Shown: positions 11,509 through 32,000 of the stretch, piece after piece
How positions within the stretch are numbered: position 1 is the first letter of the stretch
Layout of the letters: the number at the start of each line of letters is the position of its first letter
NCBI GenBank assembly: GCA_964551375.1
Contig: CAZKBG010000001.1
Coordinates: 807,329 to 839,328 of the forward strand
Length of the DNA stretch: 32,000 nucleotides
Reading direction: 5' to 3'
From: an uncultured archaeon
GTDB taxonomy: Archaea > Iainarchaeota > Iainarchaeia > Iainarchaeales > JAAZKV01
The notes under the pieces: model-generated
Told to the model about the DNA's origin: nothing
What the model saw: only the letters and a program-made list of their open reading frames with translations
Databases searched by the model: none
Made by a program: the position numbers and the translations under genes

Positions 11509-11558
11509 ACTAACCACCCCGCGTAAAAGCGCGTATATTACCTTTTCTTGAGTAAAAC

Positions 11559-11566
11559 ATTTAAAA
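11559..11566 (-). promoter_or_regulatory. Candidate TATA box for sepF
   Basis: The minus strand reads TTTTAAAT about 50 nt upstream of the TTG at 11508. This would leave a ~25-30 nt leader containing the GGTGG Shine-Dalgarno motif. Confidence 0.3.
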
Positions 11567-11740
11567 GCCCTATGTTTAGCTCGTAAAAGTAAGTAAATTA
11601 ATCTTTTCAAAATTTTTTTGATTTTGTTTAACCGCAGGCAAGTTTTTAGCCAAAGTATAGAATCCGAACAGGGAACTAATTAATGCAAGGTAAGGGGTGT
11701 ATTAGTGGAAGAGAGTGCTGGGAAGTGAGACAGCCAGTAT

Positions 11741-11748
11741 TTTTATAA
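11741..11748 (+). promoter_or_regulatory. Candidate TATA box for cdc6/orc1
   Basis: TTTTATAA lies ~43 nt upstream of the ATG at 11791. Its position rules out the track's TTG start at 11752, which would sit upstream of the expected transcription start. Confidence 0.45.
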
Positions 11749-11790
11749 CTTTTGACTCACAAAATCAATTGGTTAGGGGACGGGGAAAAA

Positions 11791-13002: not shown

Positions 13003-13041
13003 TACGACTTAGCTATTTTTTTTAAGTTGTTTTAGGAAGTA

Positions 13042-13049
13042 TTTTATTT
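13042..13049 (+). promoter_or_regulatory. Candidate TATA box for the pilin-like adhesin gene (leaderless geometry)
   Basis: TTTTATTT ends 20 nt before the ATG at 13070. The expected transcription start therefore falls at or next to the start codon. No Shine-Dalgarno motif is present. Confidence 0.45.
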
Positions 13050-13069
13050 GAATAAAGCGTGATAGTACT

Positions 13070-14866
13070 ATGCAAAGCTTGAGAAAAAAATCAACTGCCC
13101 AAGGAACAATAGAATACTTAGTAATTATGGCAATAGTAATAGTAATTGCGCTTGTGCTTGTGGGAATATTAAGCGGATTTTTTGGAGGAAGCGGAGAATC
13201 AACTGGGTTTAATGCGGTTGATGTCGGAAACAAAACTAACTCAGGAGTGGCAATACTTGAAACAGTAGCTGATTCAGAAGGAGATTCGCTTGTAAGACTC
13301 ACTAATAATTCAGGGGACACAATTACAATAAACAAAGTGACTACCACAGGCGGAGAAAACAGCTTTAATGAAACACTTCCCGCAAACACTGAAAGAACAT
13401 TTTCTTTAAACGACTTTGATTTAAGCTGCCCATGCGACGGACAAAGTGTCAAAAAAATCTGTGAGTTTACAATTCAATACACTAACCAATACGGGCTTGA
13501 AAAAAGCCAAAATGTGCGAGCAGTAGTTGACTGCGTTAATGACGCCCGCGCAGGAGGAAATACTCCTGTTGCTGGACTTGGAAGCGGAACTCTATCTGAT
13601 CCTTGGATAATAAATTCCTGTGCTGAACTTCAAGACATGAATAACCATTTAGACGGCAACTATGCGCTTGGCGGTAATATTAACTGCGCAGATTCGCTTA
13701 CATGGAACAATGGAGCAGGATTCAGTCCAATAGGATTTACAACAACAAACGGAGCAGGATGTCCGCCAGATTCAGCGCCATTTTGGGACTTATGCCTAAC
13801 TCCTGACACACAATACTTTAACGGAACACTTGACGGAAAAGGATTTACAATAAGCAATTTTTACATAAACCGCCTTGATGAAAATTTTGTAGGACTATTC
13901 AAAGTGCTTGGAGATACTGCGAGAATAACAAATCTAAATTTTACAGGAGCAAATGTAACAGGCGGAAGCGAAGTCGGAACAATTGCGGGAATGAATTACA
14001 GCGGGTATGCTGAAAGAGTAATTGTAAACGGAGATATTAACGGCGGAGCGTATGTCGGAGGATTATTCGGAAGCGCAGCAGTGAATTCAGACACAAACAA
14101 AAGCGCATCAATTTATCTCTCTGGAACAAGCGGAAAAGTCAACGGCGGGTATAGAGTCGGATGCCTTGTAGGAAACGGACACTCTTTCACAATTGATAAA
14201 TCATATTCAACCTGTGATGTAAACGCGGTTGTGGAAGCAGGAGGGCTAGTTGGAACAGTGTGGTATAATACAGTGATTACACGAAGCTATGCGACAGGAA
14301 ATGCAACTGCAGACCAAACATTAGCAGGAGGACTTGCCTCAGCATCAAATGGGACAATCAGAGACTGCTATGCGACAGGAAATGTAATAGCACTATCAGG
14401 AGCTGGCGGATTAATGGGCGGAGGAGGAGCACTAGTAATGAATAGTTATGCTACAGGCACAGTAACTTCACCACGCGCAACAGGAGGGCTAATTGGAGAT
14501 ACAATCGGGGCGATAGTAAATTCATTTGCAACAGGGCGTGTTACGGGAGATGCAAATGTTGGCGGAGTAGCAGGAGTAGTATGGGATGCATGGTGTCAAT
14601 ATGATGAAAATGTAAACTGGTCAACAACTAATACAACAATGCCAGACGCATATGGCGCATGGTATGCAAATCACGCGGGCGGATGCGGAATAAATAATTA
14701 CACACACGCGGTTGGGGTAAATAATCCTGACGGCAATTATGAATACTGGTATAATCCAACAAATACTCCTTTGCAATATTGGGGCGGATTTGGCTCGGAT
14801 AAGAACTGGAATATTTGCTCAGGGCAGGGCTTTCCTTGGCTGTCATGGGAAAACAGAACCTGCTGA
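13070..14866 (+). CDS. Class III signal peptide (archaeal type IV pilin-like) protein fused to a GLUG-repeat beta-helix adhesin domain, 598 aa
   Basis: The N-terminus MQSLRKKSTAQGTIEYLVIMAIVIVIALVLVGIL matches the class III signal pattern (basic n-region, then Q-x-[ST]-x-E-x-x-x-hydrophobic, then a hydrophobic helix). Residues ~170-270, GSGTLSDPWIINSCAELQDMNNHLDGNYAL...FNGTLDGKGFTISNF, form the usual lead-in to GLUG repeats. Residues 273-510 carry about 8-9 GLUG-type repeats. The C-terminus is an aromatic/Asn-rich cap ending GQGFPWLSWE. Confidence 0.85.
   Translation: MQSLRKKSTAQGTIEYLVIMAIVIVIALVLVGILSGFFGGSGESTGFNAVDVGNKTNSGVAILETVADSEGDSLVRLTNNSGDTITINKVTTTGGENSFNETLPANTERTFSLNDFDLSCPCDGQSVKKICEFTIQYTNQYGLEKSQNVRAVVDCVNDARAGGNTPVAGLGSGTLSDPWIINSCAELQDMNNHLDGNYALGGNINCADSLTWNNGAGFSPIGFTTTNGAGCPPDSAPFWDLCLTPDTQYFNGTLDGKGFTISNFYINRLDENFVGLFKVLGDTARITNLNFTGANVTGGSEVGTIAGMNYSGYAERVIVNGDINGGAYVGGLFGSAAVNSDTNKSASIYLSGTSGKVNGGYRVGCLVGNGHSFTIDKSYSTCDVNAVVEAGGLVGTVWYNTVITRSYATGNATADQTLAGGLASASNGTIRDCYATGNVIALSGAGGLMGGGGALVMNSYATGTVTSPRATGGLIGDTIGAIVNSFATGRVTGDANVGGVAGVVWDAWCQYDENVNWSTTNTTMPDAYGAWYANHAGGCGINNYTHAVGVNNPDGNYEYWYNPTNTPLQYWGGFGSDKNWNICSGQGFPWLSWENRTC
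13886..14599 (+). repeat. GLUG-type repeats (about 8-9 units of ~26-30 aa) within the pilin-like adhesin
   Basis: Recurrent units include VGGLFGSAAV..., AGGLVGTVWYNTVITRSYATGNATADQT, LAGGLASASNGTIRDCYATGNVIALSG, AGGLMGGGGALVMNSYATGTVTSPRA, TGGLIGDTIGAIVNSFATGRVTGDAN and VGGVAGV. Confidence 0.8.
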
Positions 14867-14916
14867 AATATTTACCTTGCGAAAGCTAAAAGTATCAAAA
14901 AGCGGATTTAGTGTTT

Positions 14917-15186
14917 TCACTTTTTATAAATCTCTTTAAGCCAAATCTTTTTGAAAAGCGGAAGCGATAATGTTGACAAAACAAAACCTGCTGTGGGCAC
15001 AAGAGCGTTCACAAAAGGATTTGGCAAATTAGCCACAATAAAAAACAAGACAATTACAATGTAAGTCAAAATTGCAATAATTATTTTTCTTGTTTTGCTC
15101 ACTTCCCAAGCCTTGTCAATCTCCACGCGCGCGTTTCTTTCCTTAATTGCTTCAATTTCTTTTTTTGCGCTTCTTGATGCAGCCAT
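14917..15186 (-). CDS. Small (89 aa) two-TM membrane protein of unknown function
   Basis: The ATG is preceded by AAGGTGA with a 4-nt spacer. A charged N-terminal helix (KKEIEAIKERNARVEIDKAWEVSKTRK) is followed by two hydrophobic spans. The gene lies 40 nt downstream of polD DP2 on the same strand. Confidence 0.7.
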   Translation of the reverse strand: MAASRSAKKEIEAIKERNARVEIDKAWEVSKTRKIIIAILTYIVIVLFFIVANLPNPFVNALVPTAGFVLSTLSLPLFKKIWLKEIYKK

Positions 15187-15226
15187 TAATTCACCTTAAG
15201 TATATGCAGTTTAGATAATTAAATAT

Positions 15227-18200
15227 TTATGCAAACTCAAACAAACTCTTCTGCTTCACAGTGTCGCTTTTGAAAACAGAATTAATTTCTTTCTCAATCA
15301 TATTAAGCCTCTGGATTAAATATGGGGAAAGGTTTTCCTGCCGAGCCATGTTCTGCGCAATTTTTAGATACTTTCTAACAGAGCCCTCATGAATTGTCAA
15401 AATAATTGTGCTTTTGCCGCACTTATAGCACTTGCCGCTTAATGGAATTCTTCTATATTTCTCCTGACAAGTGGTGCATCTAAAAGTCTGCCTTGAGAAT
15501 GCTCTTGCGTTTCCAATAATATCAGGAAGGAAGTGAGAACCCATAACCCTCTCAAGAGCATCCTTAGCATTAACCGCCATTATTTTCTTTTGAAGATTAT
15601 TCTGCCTTTGGATTTTCTCATCCATGGACTTAAGCTGAACATATCTTGACATTTTTGGACCCTCGTCAAACTGATTAGTGTCATGAGTGAAGCCAAGCCC
15701 CGAGTACTGCTTTGCTTTACCCAGCCTGTCTTTCACAGTCTCAATAGGCATATTGGGCTCGCAAACAGCCTGCGATTTTTCGTAAAGCTCAAGCGGAAAT
15801 TCCCAGCAGGTTTCCATCTTATGAACTTCATCATCAACTTCGCTTGGATTTATTATAATAGTAAAAACAAGCGGAGCATCCATTCTTCCCCCGCTCTTTG
15901 TTGAAAGATACTTGTGCGAGAAATTAATCAGCGCATCCATTAGAAGCATTACAGAATCCTGATCCCCGTCAACGTTTCTTCTCTTTGCGCAGACAAAGTA
16001 AGGGTGCCCGAATCCGAGTCTTGCCTTAGTATACCCAAGAACTCTTGCATTAACTGCTGCCGAAGTGTGAGGAGCAAGCCCGAGAACTAAATGTCCTATT
16101 AGATCCTCTTTTTTAGTTGCATTGTAAAATCTTGGAAGCTGATAGTATTTTTCAAGAAGCTCGTCAATGAACTGGCTGACATTAACAAGCCAGTCTCCGC
16201 AGGTTTCATTAACTACAACATCCTGCGGAAAAACTTCAATCAACTGGTCAATATTAGTAATTTCGTTTCCATAAATATCGGTTTTATACCCAAGCTCTAT
16301 TACTTTTTCCACAGTGAGATTTAATTCTCTTGGGCGAAAGTGAGTAAGAATTGCGTTTAACAATTCGAATCTTGAAGTTCCGTCACGGAAGATGTGCACA
16401 TTATGCTTTGCCCTAAGTATTCCTTTTTCAAGCGGCTCAATTTCCTTAGTGTCTGAAATCATTCCTTTAACTCCCTTAATCGGGTCAGGAAGAATATTTT
16501 CTTTTAAATTAAGTCTGGCTTTTTCCATGAATGCCCTAATATTAATTTCATGCTCACCAAAGTGAACAGTTTTATTTCCGCACACGCCGCACTGTTCGCC
16601 AGTAACTGATTTTTGGCAATTTTTACAGTAATTCAATCTCACTCCGTCAATTTTGCATGCAGGGCACACATGATGAAGCGAAATCTTTTTGCAGTCAGGG
16701 CAGACATATTCAGCCACTTCAACAGTAGCTTTTCCACTCTCGTTATAATTTTCATCAACAGCTTTATTTATGCTCCTGATATTTCCCCCCTTAAGTCCTA
16801 TAGGGAATAATACATGCGGATTTCCCTTCATCTCTCTTGGCTTTGCCTGTTCAGGCCTCCCCATTCTCCCTCCAATGAATGAGCCCGCTTTGTCTCTAAT
16901 AATTAATCCTGAAATTTCTGATAAATATTCAAGCACAGTTTCTTTTGAACTTTTCTTACTCTGCCCAACGGCAAAAGTTTGGCATACGCTCTCAACATTT
17001 TCATCAATAATAATCTGGGCTGCTTTTGTGGAATGAGGCATTCCAATTTTTTCCAAAAGTTTCTTATACTCGCTGTTGTGCGCAAGAACCAAAACCTTTT
17101 TGCCATTAATTTGCTCAATTTTTCCAGTTTCAATAAAATTGTGAAGCATTATAATTTCTTTTACGTTAAGCGCTTTGTAAAAATTAATATAATTAGGGTG
17201 GAGGGGCAATCCAAGTTCTTTTGAAAGAGAAAGCGCCAAGTTTTCGGGAACTTTTTGAAGCTCTGAAATTGAAGCTTTTAACAAATAGTCCCCGCCAAGA
17301 GCAGAAAGCTTTTCTTTCTTAGCAGGTTCTTCCACAGCTTTTCTAAGCTCAAGCTGCCACCACTCTTCGCAGTACCCTACGGGCACAAGAGGATGAGCGC
17401 TCTTTTTGAAATCTCCAAAAGTCGCAAGCAAATCCCCAAGATAAAGAATCTTATCCAAATTTGCTTTGACATTTTCAGCTTCAGCCACTGAATTAATTTT
17501 TCGCACACTCCCGTCTTTGAGAAGCACAACAGGGCCTTCAATTGTAGTACAAGGGAAAAACTGAGTGGCTTTTCCAGGCCTTTCAATTCTGCCGTGAGTT
17601 CCAACAGCAATAAATTCATCAAGCAAAATCATCGCGGCAGGGTTAATTGCTTTTGCCATTATTCCAGTAGTTCTTCCCCTTCCATATCTTAATCTAAAAC
17701 CGCCCCAGCTGCTTGGGTACGCTAAGATTGGTCTTCCAGCAGCAAGCCTGTCAAGGAAGGCTTTGTTTGGCTTAACTTCAATTTTAGTCTGGGTTTTTTC
17801 AACCTTTACAATTTTTTCCAAAAAATCCCAATTAAGCCCAAGGTCCTTTGCTGTTTTCATTACCCAAAGAGCTTTTAGCGCAAGTCCTTCAGAAACAACT
17901 AATCCCATTCCGCCCCTGATTCTATTTGTTGGAACTCTTGCAAGGTCCCTGTGCGCAGAAACTTCAACTTCTTCAGTCGGCACGCCGTTAATGCAAATAG
18001 GACAACCGTTAATTATTACTCTAATTTCATCATCGCTCATTGTGTACTGTCTTGAAATAACTTCAGTCTGATAAATTCCAATCTCTTCAACATATCTTTC
18101 AACTTCATCCTGAGTCGGCTTATATCTGTCAAGCTTTAAATAAGTCCTTGCAAAATCTCCAAGAATAAGAGGGATAACTGTTGAAGAGCCACCAGCAGCC

Positions 18201-18742
18201 CTAATCGGTCCAGCAAAATAAATGTCAATATATTTTGAGCCGTCCTGATTATTATTAATCTCAACTTTTGGAACGCCGTCAAGCGGAGCAACAACAACCC
18301 CTTCAGTTTCAATCAAAAGACAAGTCTTGATTCCAATCTCCACTCTCTTTTGGTCGTTTTCCATTTTCCACCATCTATCTTCAAGAATCTCGCGGAACAA
18401 CTGGAAGTATGCTTTTCTTCTGTCTTTTGTTTCAATAAATACTTCCCTAAATCTTTTAGCTAAGCCGGGAAGTCCAATGATTGTTTCCGCACGATCTGCC
18501 AAGTCCACTGCAGGAGTAACTTCAACATGCCTTGACAAGTCAAGCCCTTTTTCTTTTGCTTTCTCTGCTGCTTCAAAAGCAAGGAGAGATTTTTTTTGAA
18601 TAATTTTAAAATATTCTTTAATATGCGGCTCTGCTTCAAAAGGAATCTCCTGCGTAATCATTTCAGTCGGAGAAAGCTTCTTTGCCATTATTTGCTTTTT
18701 CTTTTGTTCTTCAGTAAAAGGAGTCTGGAATTTTTCAGCCAT
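15227..18742 (-). CDS. polC: DNA polymerase II (PolD) large catalytic subunit DP2, 1171 aa, intein-free
   Basis: Full-length collinear DP2 architecture with internal Zn clusters CPDCKKISLHHVCPACK and CKNCQKSVTGEQCGVCG and a C-terminal cluster CTTCQEKYRRIPLSGKCYKCG. The start overlaps the DP1 stop by 8 nt. Confidence 0.95.
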   Translation of the reverse strand: MAEKFQTPFTEEQKKKQIMAKKLSPTEMITQEIPFEAEPHIKEYFKIIQKKSLLAFEAAEKAKEKGLDLSRHVEVTPAVDLADRAETIIGLPGLAKRFREVFIETKDRRKAYFQLFREILEDRWWKMENDQKRVEIGIKTCLLIETEGVVVAPLDGVPKVEINNNQDGSKYIDIYFAGPIRAAGGSSTVIPLILGDFARTYLKLDRYKPTQDEVERYVEEIGIYQTEVISRQYTMSDDEIRVIINGCPICINGVPTEEVEVSAHRDLARVPTNRIRGGMGLVVSEGLALKALWVMKTAKDLGLNWDFLEKIVKVEKTQTKIEVKPNKAFLDRLAAGRPILAYPSSWGGFRLRYGRGRTTGIMAKAINPAAMILLDEFIAVGTHGRIERPGKATQFFPCTTIEGPVVLLKDGSVRKINSVAEAENVKANLDKILYLGDLLATFGDFKKSAHPLVPVGYCEEWWQLELRKAVEEPAKKEKLSALGGDYLLKASISELQKVPENLALSLSKELGLPLHPNYINFYKALNVKEIIMLHNFIETGKIEQINGKKVLVLAHNSEYKKLLEKIGMPHSTKAAQIIIDENVESVCQTFAVGQSKKSSKETVLEYLSEISGLIIRDKAGSFIGGRMGRPEQAKPREMKGNPHVLFPIGLKGGNIRSINKAVDENYNESGKATVEVAEYVCPDCKKISLHHVCPACKIDGVRLNYCKNCQKSVTGEQCGVCGNKTVHFGEHEINIRAFMEKARLNLKENILPDPIKGVKGMISDTKEIEPLEKGILRAKHNVHIFRDGTSRFELLNAILTHFRPRELNLTVEKVIELGYKTDIYGNEITNIDQLIEVFPQDVVVNETCGDWLVNVSQFIDELLEKYYQLPRFYNATKKEDLIGHLVLGLAPHTSAAVNARVLGYTKARLGFGHPYFVCAKRRNVDGDQDSVMLLMDALINFSHKYLSTKSGGRMDAPLVFTIIINPSEVDDEVHKMETCWEFPLELYEKSQAVCEPNMPIETVKDRLGKAKQYSGLGFTHDTNQFDEGPKMSRYVQLKSMDEKIQRQNNLQKKIMAVNAKDALERVMGSHFLPDIIGNARAFSRQTFRCTTCQEKYRRIPLSGKCYKCGKSTIILTIHEGSVRKYLKIAQNMARQENLSPYLIQRLNMIEKEINSVFKSDTVKQKSLFEFA

Positions 18743-20300
18743 TATTCACACCTGCGCTGTCGGTTATAGTTGCTTCAACTGTCTGAGTCAAAAATGAAGT
18801 CTGAACAATCTGCCGAGTCTTAAGGCTAATAGTCGGGAAAAAACAAGGAGTCGGAGTGTGCCCGATTTTCTTTTCAAAATCAGTCTGCCCTTCCCAGCAG
18901 CTTGAATTAATTACAGTAGTGCCGCGATAAGTGGAGTAACCCTTGCAGTGCAGATCCCCAAACCAAACAATATCAGGCTCTTCCTTAATTACCATATAAT
19001 CCCTGCCTTCAGGAACATAAGGATTTTTTCCCCCATACTTTGGCATCAAGTCCCTCTTTTTCAAAAGCTCAATCATTGCTTCAGTAGGGCGGGTCATCTC
19101 AAGAAAACTCACACTGCTTATGAGGTCGTGAACACTCGGACCGTGATAAATTAAATTTTTTATTCCTTCAGTCTCCACCCAAGAAGGAGAAGAAATAAAA
19201 TGGAAATTATTTAATTTAGAAAGCCGGGGAACAAACTCCTTATCAATTCCGGGCTGGGGCTCCGCTCTTCTAACCGCATCATGCTGTCCAGGGCAGATGA
19301 AGACATGAATATATTCAGGAATCTGAAGCATTAAATCCTCAAATTTCTGGTACTGTTCATATACATCTTTAATTATGAGGTCATCAAACTGCCCAGGGTA
19401 AACTCCAACCCCGGCAACATTATCTCCAGTGCACATAATGTACTGAATTTTTCCCACTCTCTCCTGCTGTTTTGCAGTGAGTCCTTTTCCATTCAAATAA
19501 TCAAGAAGTCTAGTAAACTGCTCTTCGTAAAATAATTTACTTCCAACGTGCATGTCAGTAATTCCGCCGATTAATACTTCCTCATTAATTGTTCTGCTTG
19601 AGCGAATCGGAAGATCCGGCCAAAAAACATCTTTAATTATTATGAAATCTTTTCCCCATTTAGTTCCTTTAATCCCAACAACATTATCCTCAATAATCCT
19701 CTCGGCTTTTTCCATAGTGGCTTTGTCTTTCTCCATCACAAGCGCAATGCATTTATTTTCCATATCCTCAATCTCAAAAGCAGTGTGCCCCTTTTTTGTA
19801 ATCCATTTTTTATTTACAATTCCAATAACATCAATCTGCTCTTTATCCGGTTTTCCTGCAAGGTTTTTTATTGGAACTGCCGCAAGATTATGCCTTGCTT
19901 TAAGCATTCCTGATAAAATTTCATACTTGCTTCTAAATAATCTCAAAAAATCATCAATCTTTCCTTCAGAAGAACTCTGCCCTGTCACGTCATACTCTTT
20001 CATTACCCTAAAATCAGCCGCCCTGTCTTTCGCCTGCGCGGTAAATGAAGCTTTTCTGACCTCGACTTCAGTAACTACCTGCGAGATTTTAGTTCTTGCG
20101 AGTTTTTTCTCTAAAAGATTAGGCTCAATGAAAAAAACTCCTTCACTGGCAAGCTCGTCAAGAATTTTTTTCCAATTCTCGTTTTGAATAAGAAGGTCAA
20201 TGGATTCGTTTGAAAGAATAAGACCCGCATTTTCTGCAAAAGTAATTATATCGTTTCTAGTTGATTCCGACTGCATCAAACCAAGTGTCCAATCGGCCAA
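18735..20300 (-). CDS. polB: DNA polymerase II (PolD) small subunit DP1 (Mre11-like phosphoesterase/exonuclease)
   Basis: Calcineurin-like phosphoesterase motifs DMHVGS, GDNVAGVGVYPGQ, PGQHD and GDLH. The gene overlaps DP2. The start is a TTG at 20300; an ATG at 20276 is the alternative. Confidence 0.92.
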   Translation of the reverse strand: MADWTLGLMQSESTRNDIITFAENAGLILSNESIDLLIQNENWKKILDELASEGVFFIEPNLLEKKLARTKISQVVTEVEVRKASFTAQAKDRAADFRVMKEYDVTGQSSSEGKIDDFLRLFRSKYEILSGMLKARHNLAAVPIKNLAGKPDKEQIDVIGIVNKKWITKKGHTAFEIEDMENKCIALVMEKDKATMEKAERIIEDNVVGIKGTKWGKDFIIIKDVFWPDLPIRSSRTINEEVLIGGITDMHVGSKLFYEEQFTRLLDYLNGKGLTAKQQERVGKIQYIMCTGDNVAGVGVYPGQFDDLIIKDVYEQYQKFEDLMLQIPEYIHVFICPGQHDAVRRAEPQPGIDKEFVPRLSKLNNFHFISSPSWVETEGIKNLIYHGPSVHDLISSVSFLEMTRPTEAMIELLKKRDLMPKYGGKNPYVPEGRDYMVIKEEPDIVWFGDLHCKGYSTYRGTTVINSSCWEGQTDFEKKIGHTPTPCFFPTISLKTRQIVQTSFLTQTVEATITDSAGVNNG

Positions 20301-21776: not shown

Positions 21777-21942
21777 AAATAATCAATTCTAACAAATTTT
21801 TGGTCTTTAGCGCAGCTATGCAATATATTTAGGGAAAAGCAGGTTTTTAATTGATTGGAATTGATTTTTTTGGAGAAAAAAGCGGCAATTACGACCCTTT
21901 TTAATTCTTTTGAATTTAGGTAAATACATAGTGGTGCAAAAA

Positions 21943-22995
21943 ATGGAAGACGTTTACAAGCACAGATACAAAAAAATAATGATGATTCCGCTGATTTTGT
22001 TTATTCCTTTACTAATCATTACACTTGTTTACCCCGGAATATCTCAGGGAATTGATATGGCTGGAGGAAATGTAATAATTATCCGCTCAGAAAAAATGAT
22101 CACAGAAGCACAGCTTGTTTCTGTATTAAAAGAAAATTTTGAGCTTCACGAACTAAAAGTTACAACAATGACTTCACCCACTGGATTTGGGGCATGGATA
22201 CAATACTCAAAAGATCCAAAAATTGAGGAAGTTGAACAAATCCTTAGCAGAGCATCAGCGGCTGTGGATAATGACGCTGAATCAATTGTATTTTCAAACC
22301 AAGCGCTTGCAGCTCTTGGCAAACCCCCTTCTACTTCATTAAACGGAAAAACTGCCCTGCTTGAAGCAGAAACCGCTTTATCGGCTTATAATGAAGATTT
22401 TGCTAAAAAACTTGAAAGCACAATCACAGAAAAACTTGGATTAGGACAAAATGCTGAATTTCAAAGAAGAGAAGTATCTGCAACTTTAGGAGCAGCTTCG
22501 CTTCAATCATCATTTTTTATAGCGATAGTTGGAATAATATTAATTACAGTAGTTGTATTCATTGCATTTCGACAATTAGTTCCATCCTTAGCAATAATAC
22601 AAGCAATGATATTTGATGTGCTAATGGGAATGTTTGGAATGGTTGTATTAAATATTCCGTTATCCCTTACTACACTCCCTGCGTTATTATTGTTAATCGG
22701 TTATTCAATTGACACTGATATTATGTTAACTTCAAGACTTTTAAAAGTAAAAGACGGAAACCACGGGAAGCACGCAACAGACGCAATGATTACTGGGATA
22801 ACAATGATTGCGACAACCCTTGTGGCACTAGTTGTGATGCTTGCAGTATCCTACTTCTACCAAATAGAAGTAATTTACCAAATCTCAGCAATTTTATTCT
22901 TTGGATTAATCGGAGACTTAATCGCAACATGGATGATGAATGCTCCAATATTAATATGGTTCCTTGAAAAGAAGGAAGCGAAGAGACATTTTTAG
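21943..22995 (+). CDS. secF: Protein-export membrane protein SecF
   Basis: The ATG at 21943 is preceded by GGTG with a 6-nt spacer. An N-terminal TM and a periplasmic domain are followed by a C-terminal TM bundle carrying GYSIDTDIMLTSR, the SecF-type GYSxxDxIV motif. The gene lies immediately upstream of secD. Confidence 0.85.
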   Translation: MEDVYKHRYKKIMMIPLILFIPLLIITLVYPGISQGIDMAGGNVIIIRSEKMITEAQLVSVLKENFELHELKVTTMTSPTGFGAWIQYSKDPKIEEVEQILSRASAAVDNDAESIVFSNQALAALGKPPSTSLNGKTALLEAETALSAYNEDFAKKLESTITEKLGLGQNAEFQRREVSATLGAASLQSSFFIAIVGIILITVVVFIAFRQLVPSLAIIQAMIFDVLMGMFGMVVLNIPLSLTTLPALLLLIGYSIDTDIMLTSRLLKVKDGNHGKHATDAMITGITMIATTLVALVVMLAVSYFYQIEVIYQISAILFFGLIGDLIATWMMNAPILIWFLEKKEAKRHF

Positions 22996-23006: not shown

Positions 23007-24641
23007 ATGGCAAACCCTTTGATTAAAAATTGGCAGATTACTTTGCTTGCAATATTCTTGATATTATCGGTTATTGCAATATTATTCAGCGGAATAAGGC
23101 TTGGAATGGATTTTAAGGGCGGAACACTTTACCAAGTTGAACTTCAAAAAGAAGTAAGCTCGGATGAGATTGCAAGAATATCAAACATTATTGCACAGAG
23201 AGTGGACCCTTCAGGACTAAAGGATGCTACTGTTTATCCAGTTGGAAAACAATTTATTGTTGTACAGCTCACGGAAACTAATCCGGTAGAGCTTGAAAAA
23301 GTTGAGTCGCGAATAAGACAGCAGGGAAAGTTTGAAGCAACGCTTGACGGAAATGTTGTTTTCACAGGGGATGAAATAAGAAAAGTAATGAGAGGAGATG
23401 CGTCTTACGGAGTAGGGAGAATCGGGGCAAATGCTTACGAATGGAGCCTGCCGTTTATTCTTAACGAAGCGGCTACAAAGCGATTTAAGGAAATGACTTT
23501 CCACAAATGCACCGCAGTTGGGTTTGGAACAAGCGGAAACCCCACTTACGAATGCGAAAAAACTGTCTTTTTCTTGGACAAGCCTTCAGCTTTAGTAGTT
23601 ACAACAGAAGAACAATACTCTCTTGATGCTGATTTATTATCAACAGGAGACAGATTCCAAAATATTCCTGAAGGAACTGATATTACTGAAATAATAAGTG
23701 ATTCCCAAGTTACAGTGCTAATAGTTGATGCAAATAAATCGCTTGACAAAACAGCTGCAAGAGCGGCATTTGGAAAAATAAGAGACGCGATAGTATCTCC
23801 TGACGTGAGCGAATCAGTAAAAAATGATTTAAACGCAATCGGATACACTGTGACAGTTGCGCAAGTAGTTGAAGGCAAGCCATGGGTTTGGGGCGTTCTT
23901 GGCGCAAGGCAGATAATTAATCTTACTGAAGGAATCACAAACGAAGATGTGCCTGATATTTCACAGGCAAAAGAATTTTCATCACTAAGAATCTCAGGAC
24001 AAAGAGCGGATTTTAAAGAAGCTCAAACAGACCTTGAAGACTTGGCAATACTGCTTGAAAGCGGCTCGCTTCCAACTCCAGTGAAGAGCATTTCAAAAGA
24101 AACAGTATCAGCTTCACTAGGTGAATCATTCTTAACAAATATAATAATCATGGGAATACTTGCAGCAATAACAGTAGCAATAGTAATTGTAGTAAGATAC
24201 AGAGTTCCAAAATTAGTAATACCAATTTTCTTAACTGGACTGAGCGAAATAGTAATCCTAATGGGATTTTTAGCAATAACGCAAAGACCGCTTGATTTAG
24301 CAGCATTTGCGGGGTTGATTGCAGCAATTGGAACAGGAGTAGATTCAGAAATTGTAATTACTGATGAAATACTCGGCAAATCACACGAACACCACGAATC
24401 GCTTGTTCACAGAGCAAAAACAGCGCTCTTCATTATCGCAACAAGCGCATTCACAATGATTGCAGTGATGGGACCAATAGTATTATTCTCAAGAAACTTG
24501 CCTGGGCTTGATAAGTTGTACGGATTTGCGGTAGTAGCAATCGTTGGAGCGCTAATTGGAATCTTAATCACAAGACCAGCATTCACAAAAATAGTTGGAA
24601 TGATAGTGCAGTCAAAAGAAGAACACGAACGCCACAACTAA
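23007..24641 (+). CDS. secD: Protein-export membrane protein SecD
   Basis: The ATG is preceded by AGGTG. An N-terminal TM is followed by a large ~360-aa extracytoplasmic domain and a C-terminal TM bundle carrying GTGVDSEIVITDE, the SecD-type motif. Confidence 0.88.
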   Translation: MANPLIKNWQITLLAIFLILSVIAILFSGIRLGMDFKGGTLYQVELQKEVSSDEIARISNIIAQRVDPSGLKDATVYPVGKQFIVVQLTETNPVELEKVESRIRQQGKFEATLDGNVVFTGDEIRKVMRGDASYGVGRIGANAYEWSLPFILNEAATKRFKEMTFHKCTAVGFGTSGNPTYECEKTVFFLDKPSALVVTTEEQYSLDADLLSTGDRFQNIPEGTDITEIISDSQVTVLIVDANKSLDKTAARAAFGKIRDAIVSPDVSESVKNDLNAIGYTVTVAQVVEGKPWVWGVLGARQIINLTEGITNEDVPDISQAKEFSSLRISGQRADFKEAQTDLEDLAILLESGSLPTPVKSISKETVSASLGESFLTNIIIMGILAAITVAIVIVVRYRVPKLVIPIFLTGLSEIVILMGFLAITQRPLDLAAFAGLIAAIGTGVDSEIVITDEILGKSHEHHESLVHRAKTALFIIATSAFTMIAVMGPIVLFSRNLPGLDKLYGFAVVAIVGALIGILITRPAFTKIVGMIVQSKEEHERHN

Positions 24642-24763: not shown

Positions 24764-25312
24764 TTAAATTAATTCTCTAAACTCTTCAACTTTTTCCATT
24801 CTCTTTGTTCCATAATACCAGATGATTAGAACAATACCGCTCATAATAAACCAAGTAATTTCATGAACTAATTCAGCGTTAAAACCGATTTTGGCTGCTA
24901 AGAGAACAAGCATAACTCTTGGAATATTAACTAAGAGAATAATTATTGTCCCAAGAAGGAAAAGGGCAAGCTTTTTCTCTAACTTCGGCCTTCTTAATGA
25001 GAAAATAATTGCTCCCAAAATACTTGCGCTTACTAAGCCAGTGCATAGGTTAGAAACAACAAAAGAGTTTTCCCCAATAGTAATTTCAGTTCCATTTCTC
25101 TCTAAATTCAAAGCGCTTGCGCTAATATAGGCAATTGAGTTGTTTAAAGGCGCAAGAGGAGCAAACTCAATTAAAATTTGGGCTACTGCAAAGATTACAA
25201 AGAACTTGATTAAAAAGACAAGTATTTTTTTTGAGTGAGAAGTCGTGCTGCTATTATTACTTTTTTTAATTTTTTGATGAATTTTACTATGGCTCCGCTT
25301 TGTTTTTGCCAT
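24764..25312 (-). CDS. Miniature exosortase/archaeosortase-family membrane protein (182 aa)
   Basis: Polytopic membrane protein carrying, in the family's order, Cys90 in SNLCTGL (codon at 25043-25045), Arg132 in VNIPRV and His150 in ELVHE. Its GGTGAT Shine-Dalgarno motif overlaps the carS stop codon. Confidence 0.65.
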   Translation of the reverse strand: MAKTKRSHSKIHQKIKKSNNSSTTSHSKKILVFLIKFFVIFAVAQILIEFAPLAPLNNSIAYISASALNLERNGTEITIGENSFVVSNLCTGLVSASILGAIIFSLRRPKLEKKLALFLLGTIIILLVNIPRVMLVLLAAKIGFNAELVHEITWFIMSGIVLIIWYYGTKRMEKVEEFRELI

Positions 25313-25319
25313 TTTATTA

Positions 25320-25865
25320 TCACCAAGGAACCTTTTTCAGCTTCCAAATATAAGCAAGCCAGTTAGTGAACCTATGAATAAAGAAAGTCGCAATCAAAAG
25401 AACAATCACAATCCAATACGCAGGAAGCACCACAATACAGGACAATACCAAACCGCCCAAAATAAAGTCAAGCTGGTCAGCAAGATCCCACTTCTCTCCG
25501 CTTTTGATTCCAAATCTTCTCTTAAAGAAACTCTTAACCAAATCCCCCAAAATTGCTCCAAGAGAAAGGTAAAACGCAAGCTCAATATAATTAGGAATCA
25601 AAGTTAAAAGATGAGGCGAAACTAAAACAAGAATTGCCGCGATTAAAGTTCCGCTCGTAATTCCAGCAAGAGTGCCGATAATTGTTTTTCCTTTCCCAAA
25701 AAGAGGCTTTTCCCAGAGTTTTTTATTCAAATCAAGAGGAGTTTTGCCATGAATTACAACAGGAATTGAATTAGCAACATAAAGAGGAATTGCATAAAGC
25801 AAAATAAGCGTGATTGGATTGATAAGGCTAACAAGAGTTGGAATAATCAGGTCAATTGAACTCAT
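25320..25865 (-). CDS. carS: CDP-archaeol synthase (CDP-2,3-bis-O-geranylgeranyl-sn-glycerol synthase, DUF46)
   Basis: IPLYVANSIPVVIHGKTPLDLNKKLWEKPLFGKGKTIIGTLAG is the characteristic CarS N-terminal motif block, and the protein is about 180 aa with multiple TM spans. The ATG at 25865 is preceded by GTGG; the GTG at 25874 is the alternative start. Confidence 0.85.
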   Translation of the reverse strand: MSSIDLIIPTLVSLINPITLILLYAIPLYVANSIPVVIHGKTPLDLNKKLWEKPLFGKGKTIIGTLAGITSGTLIAAILVLVSPHLLTLIPNYIELAFYLSLGAILGDLVKSFFKRRFGIKSGEKWDLADQLDFILGGLVLSCIVVLPAYWIVIVLLIATFFIHRFTNWLAYIWKLKKVPW

Positions 25866-25893
25866 CAAAACCACTTTACAGAACTAAACTTAG

Positions 25894-26595
25894 TCAGATT
25901 AATAAGCCAAGCAGTATGCAAAAAACGGCTCCAGCAGTAGAGCCGATTAAATTAACCTGTGTTTTATCAAGCAAGTGCTTTGTTTCAAACAACCCGCCGA
26001 AAATTGAATCAACATTTGAGCCAACTAATCCCGCAAGAAGAACTACAATAGTTCCCCAAATATTTTGATAAGCAAAAAAGTAAATAAATGCAATTACAAT
26101 TCCGCCAAAGAGAGCTGCTCCTTCCCCCAGCATTGTAACTCCGCCATCAGTGCCTTTAGGGCACGGCTTAAGAGTAGTAATCATCACAGGCTTCTTCTTT
26201 GAATAATAACCGATTTCTGAAGACAAAGTATCAGCTAAAGCTGCTGAGATTGCCCCAAAGAACCCAAGCTCAAGAAGCACGGCATAATCCGGAAAGATTA
26301 AAATTAGTATAAGCATTGCAAGCGCGGGAAGAGAATTCCCAATAACATTCATAATATTTCTCTGCTCGTGCTTTTTTCTTGGGAAATTACTTGCAATTTC
26401 TCCAATCACAAAAAAAACAACAACAGAGCCAAGGTCAATTAGTGGATTAGGGCCAAAAGTAATCGCCGCAAGTCCCACAGCATTTGCGATTAAAACTCCC
26501 TCAAAATCAAGGAGCTTTTTTCTATAAGAAAAGAGCGAAAAAACAAAGAGGAAAACAAGAATAATCCCTAACTGAAAAGGATCATTAATTGCCAT
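25894..26595 (-). CDS. DUF92/TMEM19-family integral membrane protein (TIGR00297-like)
   Basis: GAISAALADTLSSEIG and PCPKGTDGGVTMLGEGAALFGG match the conserved DUF92 blocks (ADT..SE.G and GT.GG.S..G). The protein has about 7 hydrophobic spans. Confidence 0.8.
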   Translation of the reverse strand: MAINDPFQLGIILVFLFVFSLFSYRKKLLDFEGVLIANAVGLAAITFGPNPLIDLGSVVVFFVIGEIASNFPRKKHEQRNIMNVIGNSLPALAMLILILIFPDYAVLLELGFFGAISAALADTLSSEIGYYSKKKPVMITTLKPCPKGTDGGVTMLGEGAALFGGIVIAFIYFFAYQNIWGTIVVLLAGLVGSNVDSIFGGLFETKHLLDKTQVNLIGSTAGAVFCILLGLLI

Positions 26596-26611: not shown

Positions 26612-27208
26612 TTATTTAGATCCAAAGAAAGTAGATTTAGCCACAATAACTTTCTTTACAGGGCAAATCTTTGAAGCCTTCTTGAATAATTCGTTTGAAA
26701 AATTTCCTAGTAAAAGTTCCTGGACAACAAGTTCAAAATCTCTTCCCTTAAGAACAGCTAAAGAATCATCAATCATTTTTCTAATGATTGTCTTCTGAGC
26801 ATTAGTAGCCTTTCTGTCGGTTACAACAACAACAGTAGTCATTGCGTCTCCGCCAATAACAGGAATTCTTTTTACCAAACCAACTTTACTGTTTCTTCTT
26901 CTAACAGTTCTTCCAAGAGTTCCCTTGTTTACTGCGAATTGAGAAACAACCGTAGAAGCGTTCTGCCCCTGAATGTCGTTAACCTTGAATGAAATAACAT
27001 AATCTCTCTTTGCTCTCTGTCCAGTAACAGTGTCAAGAGTAGTTTTTAGAGTTCTTCCCATTATGTTCTTTGGCTTTTCTCCGGGAGTATCGCACAAAGG
27101 TCTTCTGTCAAAGATTTTAGAAGCTGAAATAGTGAACCACTTTTTCTTCTTCCACTTATCAACAGTTTTTCTTGCTGCGCTTGCTTTCTGTGCTTTTGTT
27201 TCCGCCAT
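26612..27208 (-). CDS. rps3ae: 30S ribosomal protein S3Ae (eS1)
   Basis: VDKWKKKKWFTISASKIF...MGRTLKTTLDTVTG...ISFKVNDIQGQNASTVVSQF is the collinear S3Ae signature. Confidence 0.92.
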   Translation of the reverse strand: MAETKAQKASAARKTVDKWKKKKWFTISASKIFDRRPLCDTPGEKPKNIMGRTLKTTLDTVTGQRAKRDYVISFKVNDIQGQNASTVVSQFAVNKGTLGRTVRRRNSKVGLVKRIPVIGGDAMTTVVVVTDRKATNAQKTIIRKMIDDSLAVLKGRDFELVVQELLLGNFSNELFKKASKICPVKKVIVAKSTFFGSK

Positions 27209-27212: not shown

Positions 27213-27320
27213 TCACTCTCTTAACAATTCATCAATCTTACTTAAAGATTCAATGCCTTCCCCTTCAAAAACAACTTCCTTGCCTTTTAAGAGTCTGGCT
27301 TTAACTATCAAATCCTTCAC
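27213..27320 (-). CDS. Candidate micro-ORF (35 aa) exactly filling the S15-S3Ae spacer
   Basis: The ORF runs from a GTG at 27320 (or a TTG at 27311 behind AGGTGA) to a TGA at 27213-27215 and encodes VKDLIVKARLLKGKEVVFEGEGIESLSKIDELLRE. It starts 2 nt after the S15 stop and ends 4 nt before the S3Ae ATG. It falls below the ORF-track length cutoff and matches no family I recognise. Confidence 0.35.
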   Translation of the reverse strand: MKDLIVKARLLKGKEVVFEGEGIESLSKIDELLRE

Positions 27321-28627: not shown

Positions 28628-31600
28628 TTAATTCCTTCTTTTTGATAGTAATCCAACAACAATTGCGAGAGCTGCAATTATTACAATTATGCCGTTATCA
28701 GGAACGCTTTTAGTAGGAGTTTCCTGATTGTAATTAATGAACTCAACTTTCTCGCAAACAGTGCAGTTTGGAGCATCAGGCTTAATATTAGCAGTAACTC
28801 TAATCACAGTTCCGTCAACAAAAGGAACAAGAGGAATTAAAGTTGAAGTAATTGGATTAACGTTGCAATCAACTTTTGAATTAGCAGGAGAACTTACTAA
28901 TAACTGAACAGGAATTGCTTCTGAAAAGTTCTCAAACTTCATAGTAGATTTTGCGTACTTTGTGCAAACAAGAGTAACTACAACATTTCCATCAACTATT
29001 TTTGCATCAAGAGAAACAATTGAATTAACATCAGAAGACACCGGCGGATAGCCTTTCTTAAAACAAGCTTTTAGAATTCCATTAGTTGAGCAAGGATAAG
29101 AAGTTTGGTACAAATTAGGGTAAGTAATTCCAGTCGCAAGGCAATTCATATCAAGTTCAGGACAAATCATGTCGCTGACATTAACAAGCACATCATCAGA
29201 GCGAACTTGATAAGCGTCATCATTCACAGTAAGTCTTAATGCTTTGATTCCATTAGCATCAATTCCAAGGCAATAAACTTTTGGAGTTAAAGTAGTTGAA
29301 TCAAATATAGCGCAAGTTGAAGTAGGACTTGGGCTTGGAGTAACAAAGCTCCAATTAATGACAAAAGGAGCAAGTCCGCCGTTAATTATTCCGATTAATG
29401 AAATATTTTGGTCTACAAATCCTGCCGCATCAGGCCCTGCTGAAATTGAAAACGGAGCAATTGTGGGATAAGTTACTACAATATTTACATCATCATTTGC
29501 AAAAGTTCTGCCGTCATTTACAGTAAATCTTACAGTCGCAGTTTTTGGTCCGCTCATGGCTGCGTCAATATCGCACCTAAATGTCGGTGTGAGAGTAGTT
29601 GCATTAGTAAGAGTGCACTTAGGATTAGTTGTGTTAACATCTTTTGTTATTACCCAGTTGTAAGTATAAATTCCTCTTCCTCCAAGCGCGCTTCCGTTTA
29701 AGACTTCATTATATCTTGTCGCAATTGACTTATCAGGTCCTGCGTTAGCTGATAAGTTAATTCTTATATTTGAAGAACAAACCGCGCTTTCACCAGCAAC
29801 ATTTCCAGTAATTAAAACAGAAATATTTCCGTCATTTTTGTGATAAGGGCATCTCATCAAAAATGTTGTTCCAACTGGAGTAGTGTTTCTAAATTCAGCA
29901 TCAATTGTAGTTAGTGAATAACATTTGGAATTAATGTTTGAAGAAGCAACTGGAGCTCCTGCAAAGTAAGAAGCTGTAACATTAAAGTCAATATTTGAGT
30001 CATATGCTGAAGTAATAGTTCCAGCAGGAAGAACTGTGCAGGCAGGACCAAGAACCAAAGTTAAAGTAAAAGCAGTCCAAGCAGATTTTAAGTGAGTGAA
30101 ATTATCTTCAGCCCTTACTCTGAAAGTTTTTGCTCCCGCAGTAGTCCAAGTATAAGTTCCCGTTCCAATAGTTGCGCTTGGAATATAATTAAGCGGAACA
30201 TTCTCATCGGAAATTCCGTCATTGTTCCAATCAACCTGATACTTGATTAAATCCCCTTCAGGATCAACCGAATTAAAATCAAAAGACTGCATACTATTTA
30301 CGCTTGCAGTTCCAGGAGTAGTTCTAACAACAGTAGGCGCGCTGGGAGCAAGATTTGGGTTTAAATTAATTGCGCGGGCAGTGCAAGCTTTTGTTTGAGA
30401 AGAACTTGCAATAGTAGCTCCAACGCTTAAACTTTGAACAGCTGAAACAGTATACGCGCACTGCGCAGTGCACAAACCTGAATAAGGAAGAGTGTTTTGA
30501 TTAACGCAAGTTAAAGGAGCAGTTGTAGCATTACCGCACGAAACCGAATCAACACCCGCAAGAGATGGATCCGCCTGAAAATCATTAAAATCAACAGTTA
30601 TTGTTGAATTCCCGCTAACTCTTCTTGGATTTGGGTTAATTTGAATAACTCTGCAGGTTGGAACAGGAATTGTTCTAACAGTTGCAGTATCTGATGCAGT
30701 TTCGCCAAGCGAATCAGTCACAGTAACTGAAAGAGTGGTGTCAGTGTAAATATTTGAACAACTTATAGTTGGAGTTGCTGTGTTTTGATTTGTTAAAGTA
30801 CAATTTCCAGCATTATTTGTAATAGCCCAATTCCAAGAAGTAATTGTTCCTCCGCCAGCTCTAGTTGCAGTCAAAGTAGTTGGAGTTCCAATAGTGTGAG
30901 TATAAGGTCCCCCCGCATCAACAGAAAGATTGGCAACAATGTTAATCGGACAATTAGCCCAAAGCGCAGAGTATTGTCCTGACTGGGATTGGGACATTAC
31001 TTTAATAGTTTTTGCTCCGACAGTAGTCCAGCTGTGCTGAGCATTAACAGTTGTTCCGCTCGCAACATAACCAGAAGCAGGAAACCATTCTTCAACAGTA
31101 TTTCCGCCATTCCAATTTACCCCATATCTTAAATTTTCATTATCAGTCCCAGTAAAACTAAATGCATAATTATTATTTGCAAGTCCTATTGAAGTGCAGC
31201 TTAAAGTTGGAGTATTGGGATATGGATTTGGCGCAGTAGGATTACAGCAAATTTCACCAGTAGTATAATCACAAATACCAAAAAGGTTTGGAGTTCCAGG
31301 ATAGCATAAATAATCTCCTAGCCCTCCAACCCCATTTACCCAATAAGGATTAATGAAAGGAGTTACAGGAGTGATTTGAGTAGGGAAACCCATTGTGCAA
31401 GTTCCTCCATAAGTAAAGCAAGTCAACTGCTGACCGCAGCAAGATTTTCCTGGAGCGCAAGTTCCGCTTCCAGTGGCATATTGAGGCAATCCCATATTGC
31501 AGGGCATCATATTGCAAGTCTGGCTCATATTTTGAGTGCATGTGTATGTTGCGCCGCAGCATGACTGTCCTATCCCGCATGTTCCGCTGCCATCAGCTCT

Positions 31601-32000
31601 GTTTATATTGCTGCAAGGCCCTCCATAAACACAATCCTGCATTACATTCTGCTCGCAAGTGTATTGCGGACCGCAGCAACTCTGCATTGTAGGACAAGTC
31701 CCATAAGCATCAGGGCGGTTATTTGAAGAACATAATCCTGTTGTGCAAACATTTGAACCGGTGCAGGTGTAAGGAGCGCCACAGCAGGATTGTCCCATTG
31801 CGCATGTTCCGCTGTAATTATCTGGACGGTTATTCATAGAGCAGCTTCCGCTCATGCACGTTCCGCCATAATTAGAGCAGGTATAACTTGGCTGTTCGCA
31901 ACAGCGATAAGATTCATTTGGCCAACTGTCTCCGGGCCCTGCGCAGTTTCCCCAATAACTCCAACCATAAGGACAGGAGTACATGCACTGGTCTCCGCCA
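28628..32000 (-). CDS. Giant C-terminally anchored surface protein (N-terminus outside the window) with six-Cys tandem repeats, PKD-like modules and a P-D-N-G + TM + KRRN tail
   Basis: The frame stays open beyond the track's M at 31984 up to the window edge (upstream codons read GGDQC). More than 1120 aa are visible. The C-terminus is VPDNGIIVIIAALAIVVGLLSKRRN. Confidence 0.88.
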   Translation of the reverse strand, partial: GGDQCMYSCPYGWSYWGNCAGPGDSWPNESYRCCEQPSYTCSNYGGTCMSGSCSMNNRPDNYSGTCAMGQSCCGAPYTCTGSNVCTTGLCSSNNRPDAYGTCPTMQSCCGPQYTCEQNVMQDCVYGGPCSNINRADGSGTCGIGQSCCGATYTCTQNMSQTCNMMPCNMGLPQYATGSGTCAPGKSCCGQQLTCFTYGGTCTMGFPTQITPVTPFINPYWVNGVGGLGDYLCYPGTPNLFGICDYTTGEICCNPTAPNPYPNTPTLSCTSIGLANNNYAFSFTGTDNENLRYGVNWNGGNTVEEWFPASGYVASGTTVNAQHSWTTVGAKTIKVMSQSQSGQYSALWANCPINIVANLSVDAGGPYTHTIGTPTTLTATRAGGGTITSWNWAITNNAGNCTLTNQNTATPTISCSNIYTDTTLSVTVTDSLGETASDTATVRTIPVPTCRVIQINPNPRRVSGNSTITVDFNDFQADPSLAGVDSVSCGNATTAPLTCVNQNTLPYSGLCTAQCAYTVSAVQSLSVGATIASSSQTKACTARAINLNPNLAPSAPTVVRTTPGTASVNSMQSFDFNSVDPEGDLIKYQVDWNNDGISDENVPLNYIPSATIGTGTYTWTTAGAKTFRVRAEDNFTHLKSAWTAFTLTLVLGPACTVLPAGTITSAYDSNIDFNVTASYFAGAPVASSNINSKCYSLTTIDAEFRNTTPVGTTFLMRCPYHKNDGNISVLITGNVAGESAVCSSNIRINLSANAGPDKSIATRYNEVLNGSALGGRGIYTYNWVITKDVNTTNPKCTLTNATTLTPTFRCDIDAAMSGPKTATVRFTVNDGRTFANDDVNIVVTYPTIAPFSISAGPDAAGFVDQNISLIGIINGGLAPFVINWSFVTPSPSPTSTCAIFDSTTLTPKVYCLGIDANGIKALRLTVNDDAYQVRSDDVLVNVSDMICPELDMNCLATGITYPNLYQTSYPCSTNGILKACFKKGYPPVSSDVNSIVSLDAKIVDGNVVVTLVCTKYAKSTMKFENFSEAIPVQLLVSSPANSKVDCNVNPITSTLIPLVPFVDGTVIRVTANIKPDAPNCTVCEKVEFINYNQETPTKSVPDNGIIVIIAALAIVVGLLSKRRN
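29174..31171 (-). other. Array of five PKD-like beta-sandwich modules of two kinds, separated by Cys-containing Ig-like spacers (approximate bounds)
   Basis: Kind 1 is exemplified by FSFTGTDNENLRYGVNWNGG...HSWTTVGAKTIKV and FDFNSVDPEGDLIKYQVDWNNDG...YTWTTAGAKTFRVRAED. Kind 2 is exemplified by LSVDAGGPYTHTIG..., LSANAGPDKSIATRYNEVLNGS...YTYNWVI and ISAGPDAAGFVDQNISL... Confidence 0.7.
31427..31885 (-). repeat. Four complete tandem 36-40 aa six-cysteine repeats, flanked by degenerate copies
   Basis: Each unit fits Y-T-C-x(5-7)-C-x(4-5)-C-x(11-13)-C-x5-C-C-G. Examples are YTCSNYGGTCMSGSCSMNNRPDNYSGTCAMGQSCCG and YTCTGSNVCTTGLCSSNNRPDAYGTCPTMQSCCG. Similarity is also visible at DNA level (shared ...GCATGTTCCGCTG... 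on the plus strand near 31575 and 31805). Confidence 0.85.

Follow-up and report, generated by a model that had tools for sequence, protein, structure and literature searches.

Gene organization at the carS locus

The window analyzed here is a 32,000-nucleotide stretch of contig CAZKBG010000001.1 from an uncultured archaeon of the phylum Candidatus Iainarchaeota. It carries on its minus strand a short gene of the exosortase/archaeosortase family directly behind carS, the gene for CDP-archaeol synthase. The sortase gene (positions 24764 to 25312) encodes 182 residues, and its product exceeds the cut-offs of both PF09721 and TIGR04178. carS lies at 25320 to 25874 if translation starts at a GTG codon, or at 25320 to 25865 with the ATG start of the public gene call, which gives a product of 181 residues. 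This product matched PF01864 (118.8 bits) and the equivalog model NF003114 (161.6 bits for a cut-off of 148, over model positions 3 to 172 of 172). The next genes upstream on the same strand encode a 233-residue integral membrane protein of the DUF92/TIGR00297 family (25894 to 26595; PF01940, 164.8 bits) and ribosomal protein S3Ae (26612 to 27208; PF01015, 122.2 bits). On the plus strand, the genes for SecF (21910 to 22995) and SecD (23007 to 24641), both recognized by Pfam and NCBIfam matches, are convergent with the sortase gene.

The preliminary description of this DNA had reported that the DUF92, carS and 182-residue genes run head-to-tail with short gaps, and that the Shine-Dalgarno motif of the last gene overlaps the carS stop codon. 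The open reading frame (ORF) map confirmed this arrangement. The gap between carS and the sortase gene is 7 nt, the gap between DUF92 and carS is 19 or 28 nt depending on the carS start, and a GGTGA motif located 8 nt ahead of the sortase ATG overlaps the TGA stop of carS. The same map also showed that the minus-strand run extends upstream beyond DUF92, a point absent from that description. The S3Ae gene ends 16 nt upstream of DUF92 and is itself preceded by a 34-codon ORF, the S15 and Bud32 genes and a large surface-protein gene. Judging from gap sizes only, transcription of the unit may begin with the S3Ae gene.

The 182-residue protein is a member of the exosortase/archaeosortase family

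Family membership had been proposed from the order of three residues, and searches with profile hidden Markov models bear it out. The protein scored 34.3 bits against PF09721 (Exosortase_EpsH; curated cut-off 25.7) and 36.4 bits against the TIGR04178 signature (cut-off 23), in the latter case over model positions 3 to 90 of 97. The top subfamily model was ArtD (TIGR04175), with 53.1 bits over positions 4 to 136 of 150 for a cut-off of 125; homologues from two other loci (L076 and L077) scored 36.3 and 26.6 bits against the same model. Neither the ArtA model TIGR04125 (19.6 bits, cut-off 75) nor the pacearchaeosortase model NF033505 (23.3 bits, cut-off 80) was passed, and bacterial XrtA/XrtC-type models gave 17 to 23 bits for cut-offs of 208 to 300. 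For ArtE (cut-off 95) and ArtF (cut-off 150), the scores were taken from the L076 and L077 homologues and fell short as well. The protein is thus a family member outside every curated subfamily, and its relatives therefore receive from NCBI only the generic name "exosortase/archaeosortase family protein".

Its length had been described as far below that of ArtA-type enzymes. Such a size is not new in the family, since NCBIfam already holds curated family models of 150 to 170 positions, namely ArtD (150), ArtE (153), ArtF (166), pacearchaeosortase (167), XrtM (150), XrtX and XrtY (168 each), to be contrasted with ArtA (271) and ArtC (274). In size, the protein is similar to ArtD, ArtE, ArtF and pacearchaeosortase, whose models span 150 to 167 positions, but it scores far under each of their cut-offs. 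The bacterial enzymes XrtA and XrtC belong to the same superfamily, but their models have 260 to 306 positions and they are tied to exopolysaccharide loci.

The three residues expected of the catalytic core, Cys90 (SNLC90TGL), Arg132 (NIPR132) and His150 (LVH150E), are present in that order, as first described. All three are invariant in 33 aligned homologues with identities down to 39%, together with T91, G92, S95, N129, W154, W165 and K170. Cys90 and Arg132 are 42 residues apart. In Haloferax ArtA, the experimentally critical Cys173 and Arg214 are separated by 41 residues (PMC9263693).

An AlphaFold2 model of the protein (mean predicted local distance difference test score of 84.9) contains long helices and a small beta-hairpin ahead of Cys90. 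Compared with solved structures, this model resembled none, and no relative was found in the PDB. Hydropathy analysis indicated a hydrophobic membrane core of four helices behind a lysine-rich N-terminal tail. According to the positive-inside rule, this tail (9 Lys/Arg) and the loop at residues 107 to 114 (RRPKLEKK, 5 Lys/Arg) are cytoplasmic. Cys90, Arg132 and His150 are therefore predicted to sit in the outer half of the membrane, and in this model they would lie level with a signal borne by the outer end of a substrate helix.

Linkage of carS and the sortase gene

Related loci were collected by scanning one genome per species, which gave 34 loci, and metagenome contigs were added. Linkage was counted in the 57 non-identical loci from these species-level genomes and contigs that contained both carS and the sortase gene. 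Genes were mapped from public gene calls and by tblastn of nine window proteins onto all loci, and a junction was counted as interrupted when more than 300 nt separated the two genes. Among the named loci are those of Candidatus Iainarchaeum andersonii, archaeon GW2011_AR10, Candidatus Forterrea sp. and many metagenome-assembled genomes (MAGs) labelled "Candidatus Iainarchaeum archaeon"; Forterrea is assigned to the phylum Candidatus Iainarchaeota (Diapherotrites, DPANN). The window sortase has its nearest relatives in the Forterrea-like part of the clade (54-71% identity). A sortase profile search returned 241 clusters and, among the 120 listed, the named ones are all either members of this phylum or unclassified archaeal MAGs.

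The family-wide gene order is Bud32, S15, S3Ae, DUF92, carS and sortase; these are followed by SecD and SecF, which lie on the opposite strand, and by NOG1. Adjacency to carS is not limited to the genome of the window: carS lies immediately upstream of the sortase gene in 57/57 loci, and this junction is never interrupted (0/57). A start codon in the sortase frame is found between -7 and +9 nt from the carS stop in 53 loci, 21 of the loci showing a 4-nt overlap. From this spacing, the sortase gene probably shares a transcript with carS and its translation is probably coupled to that of carS. The junctions between S3Ae and DUF92 (0/37) and between SecD and SecF (0/40) were likewise intact. Interruptions were found between DUF92 and carS (12/46), between the sortase gene and SecD (9/52) and between Bud32 and S15 (11/29). 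DUF92, which had been presented as a member of the unit, is thus a loosely attached neighbor of carS and not its fixed partner. The stable units are S3Ae-DUF92 and carS-sortase, with SecD and SecF as conserved neighbors outside the operon.

In the public gene calls, the interruption between DUF92 and carS is an antisense Peptidase_S49 gene, accompanied in one case by a second gene. This Peptidase_S49/NfeD gene (SppA-like signal-peptide peptidase) occurs in the Iainarchaeum-like half of the clade (L007:3432-4391, L076:3941-4912 and L077:3838-4842) and has no counterpart in the window. Its insertion represents a further protein-export function beside SecD, SecF and the sortase. As for DUF92, the family (COG1836) includes the plant phytyl-phosphate kinase VTE6, and it is possible that the protein encoded here is a polyprenyl-phosphate kinase.

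Four carS genes with 37-46% identity, whose neighborhoods lack the genes of the Iainarchaeota block, served as a control set; only one of them (L078, a Nanoarchaeota MAG) is named taxonomically. The sortase, S3Ae, DUF92 and SecD genes were absent near carS in all four loci, and the block from Bud32 to NOG1 is therefore specific to this phylum. In the Nanoarchaeota locus (L078:4503-5531), a pssA-like CDP-alcohol transferase gene directly precedes carS with zero intervening bases. In another DPANN locus (L079:5001-7673), the genes after carS encode a lipid kinase of the YegS type and an acyltransferase; this combination looks bacterial and is unusual beside an archaeal carS. The neighbors of carS in the remaining two loci are unrelated and include neither a lipid gene nor a sortase gene. 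Thus, where carS has a tight partner elsewhere, as in two of the four control loci, this partner is a lipid enzyme.

These counts bear on the main rival explanation, in which the protein is a true archaeosortase that has substrates of its own, and its place behind carS is an inherited gene order with no mechanistic tie to CarS. The whole block (Bud32-S15-S3Ae-DUF92-carS-Art, SecD-SecF and NOG1) is indeed conserved across the phylum, all examples come from one lineage, and S3Ae-DUF92, an unrelated-looking pair, is just as unbroken as carS-sortase. In haloarchaea, moreover, artA and lipid genes do not cluster (PMC7157517). However, the carS-sortase junction remained unbroken in 57 loci, nearly always with a few nucleotides between the genes or with an overlap, whereas the flanking junctions were broken repeatedly. 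Lipid enzymes are coupled to carS in half of the control loci, and the precedent of ArtA and PssA shows that such links can be functional. We consider inherited order without such a tie somewhat unlikely. Since a single ancestral arrangement underlies all 57 loci and S3Ae-DUF92 is equally stable, a functional tie between carS and the sortase is plausible but unproven, and we judge its chances to be close to even, or slightly below.

Tight translational coupling also suggests matched amounts of the two proteins, as expected if the sortase-like protein assisted or regulated CarS in lipid metabolism and had no activity on proteins. No such partner accompanies CarS orthologues elsewhere, however, and CarS is active on its own in vitro. 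The 182-residue protein has also retained the Cys, Arg and His of its family, and matching secreted proteins with a tripartite tail occur in the same lineage (see below). A role confined to CarS is hence extremely improbable.

A C-terminal signal on secreted surface proteins

The large gene upstream of Bud32 (28628 to 32000, minus strand, its 5' end lying outside the window) encodes a cysteine-rich secreted surface protein with PKD-like domains (PF22352, 39.1 bits). The start reported by the gene-finding tool at 31984 is internal; on a public contig with the same sequence the full protein has 1150 residues (L001:3233-6685) and begins with the signal peptide MQKFFGWAFILAIFCITFIPSAMA. The C-terminus of the protein called at 28628-31984 reads ...SVPDNGIIVIIAALAIVVGLLSKRRN. 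It contains a tripartite signal of the [IV]PDN[SNG] type at 28631 to 28705 (minus strand), composed of VPDNG, the hydrophobic stretch IIVIIAALAIVVGLLS and the basic tail KRRN.

Two surface proteins of the window had been proposed as sortase substrates, and both C-termini do exist. The protein at 28628 stands as a signal carrier, its tripartite signal being conserved in 19 cluster representatives, whereas the second one does not carry the signal. This 562-residue secreted protein (6045 to 7733, plus strand) ends in a helix and basic tail (...TPEEGKEIIPLIVLIAIILAIIALFVLYKAAKVARK), but has TPEEGKEIIP in the place of the [IV]PDN motif and matched no C-terminal sorting model; it was not counted as a substrate. 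It is the second of three consecutive large secreted or membrane proteins (1824, 562 and 844 residues; 516-10264, plus strand) with few domain matches, among them an Ig-like domain in the first. The genes for the 562- and 844-residue proteins overlap by 4 nt, and the former protein is cysteine-rich before its C-terminal helix.

The distribution of the signal was assayed in two ways. First, all ORFs of the window and of the collected loci were screened for proteins ending in a helix and a basic tail. Outside the window, seven loci (L011, L014, L019, L042, L043, L052 and L057) encode ten distinct proteins with a terminal [IV]-P-D-[NTY] followed by a hydrophobic stretch and a Lys/Arg cluster; each of the ten genes is located a short distance upstream of Bud32, like its counterpart in the window. 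Second, the last 150 residues of the window protein were compared by phmmer with 1.84 billion representatives. Among the 22 proteins found, 19 matches extend to the C-terminus and 3 concern internal repeats only. In each of the 19 C-terminal matches, [IV]-P-D is preserved ahead of a membrane helix and a basic tail, and N is the next residue in 17; the three internal-repeat matches lack this arrangement. In this survey of loci and clusters, tails of the [IV]PDN[SNG] type come from the window, seven further loci and 19 cluster representatives, some of them from Diapherotrites or sortase-bearing contigs. The named tail-bearing proteins come from Diapherotrites, and several are encoded on contigs equal in size to sortase- or carS-bearing ones (17,234, 66,520 and 985,290 bp).

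The tail alignment comprised 27 sequences, of which 26 are genuine; the remaining one (P0268) is an internal-repeat match caught by the motif pattern. Information content at the I/V, P, D, N and S/N/G positions was 3.2, 4.1, 4.3, 2.9 and 2.7 bits, compared with about 1 bit at the eight preceding positions. The motif P-[DE]-x-G proposed earlier rested on two tails only (PDNG and PEEG) and must be replaced by [IV]-P-D-N-[SNG]: glycine stands at the fifth position in 4 of the 27 tails, and glutamate takes the place of the aspartate in none. In 231,750 residues of locus ORFs, [IV]PD[NTY] was found 19 times, about half of the occurrences falling right before a C-terminal helix for an expectation of about 0.01.

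Many examples have a domain of about 100 residues with four cysteines ahead of the motif. The same tail is also found on a family of about 400 residues (NIPDT), which has no detectable similarity to the others outside the tail, and on a family of about 570 residues (PVPDY), for which similarity outside the tail is partial. N-terminal signal peptides of the Sec type were present in every full-length example checked in the loci.

None of the NCBIfam C-terminal sorting models reached its cut-off on these tails, the only similarity being a generic helix-plus-tail resemblance, below threshold, to Loki-CTERM and Heimdall-CTERM. The PGF-CTERM model did not match the candidate tails, and the PEP-CTERM and VPDSG-CTERM models gave no match on the tested tails at E values up to 10. 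The cognate signal of ArtD is PIP-CTERM, unlike [IV]PDN[SNG]. Signals of bacterial exosortases start with [IV]-P-[ED], as in VPEP and VPDSG, and in this respect resemble [IV]PDN[SG].

A possible lipid-anchoring pathway

These results make it likely that the [IV]PDN proteins are the substrates of the sortase. For the pathway as a whole, we lean towards an Iainarchaeota-specific subfamily of small archaeosortases, coupled to carS and acting on [IV]PDN proteins, which would be anchored to lipid by analogy with ArtA. The cysteine-rich surface proteins would be exported via Sec and held in the membrane by their C-terminal helix and basic tail. The sortase would recognize [IV]-P-D-N-[SNG] at the outer end of this helix, where the outward-facing Cys90, aided by Arg132 and His150, would attack and cleave the chain, releasing helix and tail. 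The new C-terminus might then be transferred to an archaeol lipid that bears an amine and is made starting from CDP-archaeol, the product of CarS. Coupling to carS would put synthesis of the sortase beside the enzyme making the activated lipid precursor. For the lipid attachment and the use of the CarS product, we infer from the ArtA-PssA-PssD case: in Haloferax, ArtA processing requires PssA and PssD, which make archaetidylethanolamine from CDP-archaeol (PMC7157517).

The likeness to ArtA of Haloferax volcanii and Methanosarcina extends to the TIGR04178 signature, the Cys-Arg spacing (42 residues here, 41 in ArtA), the tripartite C-terminal signal of the substrates (motif, helix and basic tail) and the genomic context. 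Indeed, Methanosarcina artA lies beside pssA and pssD in a cluster with archaeal lipid head-group genes; this link between artA and pssA was noted by Haft and colleagues and tested in Haloferax (PMC7157517). It is also embodied in the NCBIfam model NF038086, "protein sorting system archaetidylserine synthase". On the other hand, the protein described here has 182 residues and about four helices, compared with about 300 residues for ArtA, and the signal is [IV]PDN[SNG] instead of the PGF of ArtA substrates. The linked lipid gene is carS, one step before pssA. The link is universal in this lineage, but more than 70 haloarchaeal genomes have an unlinked artA (PMC7157517).

Several observations weigh against this anchoring pathway. 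The evidence for the link to carS comes entirely from one phylum with a syntenic nine-gene block (Bud32 to NOG1), so that the 57 loci are not independent, and carS is required for all phospholipids, with or without a sortase. Most examples of the signal share the domain of about 100 residues, and conservation of the motif is thus partly due to descent. The signal-bearing proteins observed all belong to the Forterrea-like part of the clade; in the Iainarchaeum-like part, none was found within 6-10 kb of the sortase gene. Neither pssA nor pssD was seen among the genes of the 32-kb window. Finally, experiments offer no parallel for the role of His150, the residues tested in ArtA being Cys173, Arg214 and Arg253 (PMC9263693).

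The lack of pssA and pssD in the window is also what would be expected if the sortase only cleaved its substrates, the surface proteins being shed, released or transferred to a non-lipid acceptor such as a glycan or another protein. In addition, the conservation is limited to proteolytic/transpeptidase residues, and a lipid product has been demonstrated for no exosortase or archaeosortase except ArtA (PMC6098224). ArtA substrates are themselves lipid-modified (PMC7157517, PMC6098224), however, and the conserved coupling to a lipid-activating enzyme would be left aside, which makes cleavage alone a very unlikely minor alternative to the lipid-anchoring pathway.

A more far-reaching version of the lipid-anchoring pathway is that, in these reduced genomes, CarS and the small sortase would together make up an anchoring machine of two genes, the coupling reflecting a partnership, physical or kinetic, that would let the sortase use lipid activated on the spot by CarS. 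This would imply a very short head-group pathway, or direct use of a CDP-archaeol-derived lipid, with no separate PssA/PssD route as in haloarchaea. We regard it as improbable; if true, it would be the smallest known archaeosortase-type lipid-anchoring system, and one that could be reconstituted.

In our literature search, no paper was found pairing an archaeosortase with Diapherotrites or Iainarchaeota, and the papers found on archaeosortase and CDP-archaeol concern ArtA or are reviews. As far as the searched literature shows, the Iainarchaeota-specific sortase subfamily, the candidate [IV]PDN[SNG] signal and the invariant coupled operon with carS are new. The type of system, an archaeosortase-signal pair linked to a lipid gene, was already known, and the new elements add a modest twist. 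Short archaeosortases and lineage-specific sortase/signal pairs are catalogued as well (pacearchaeosortase, Loki-CTERM, and heimdallarchaeosortase with Heimdall-CTERM), but the pair described here is missed by current curated models.

The chemistry of archaeosortases and exosortases is poorly defined: ArtA alone has been studied, and for this enzyme the lipid donor and the bond-forming enzyme have not been directly shown. A sortase of 160-190 residues with a sharp signal, invariably coupled to an archaeol-activating enzyme, is a compact candidate for reconstitution and provides independent genomic support for this enzyme family working together with lipid synthesis. Moreover, the [IV]PDN tails allow annotators of DPANN genomes to recognize a class of putatively anchored surface proteins, which likely matter for cell-cell contact in these small archaea.

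Other features of the window

The ORF between the S15 and S3Ae genes (27216-27320, minus strand) is conserved across the phylum as a reading frame of 32-40 codons, for instance at L002:2818-2916, L004:3001-3105 and L007:2024-2146. Residues A8, G20, E21, E24, L26 and D30 are invariant and no Pfam match was obtained. It may encode an unannotated small protein of the ribosomal-protein operon.

The remainder of the window is an ordinary archaeal chromosome, with genes for SepF, Cdc6/Orc1, both PolD subunits and NOG1. Division and replication genes are grouped within about 9 kb (11152-20300), where SepF, Cdc6/Orc1, the large PolD subunit DP2 and the small subunit DP1 are encoded; origin-type repeats were sought around cdc6 in the window and nothing convincing was found. 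An unrelated gene lies among them (13070-14866, plus strand). Its 598-residue product has a class III (type IV pilin-like) signal peptide and GLUG motifs, and may be a pilin-like adhesin.

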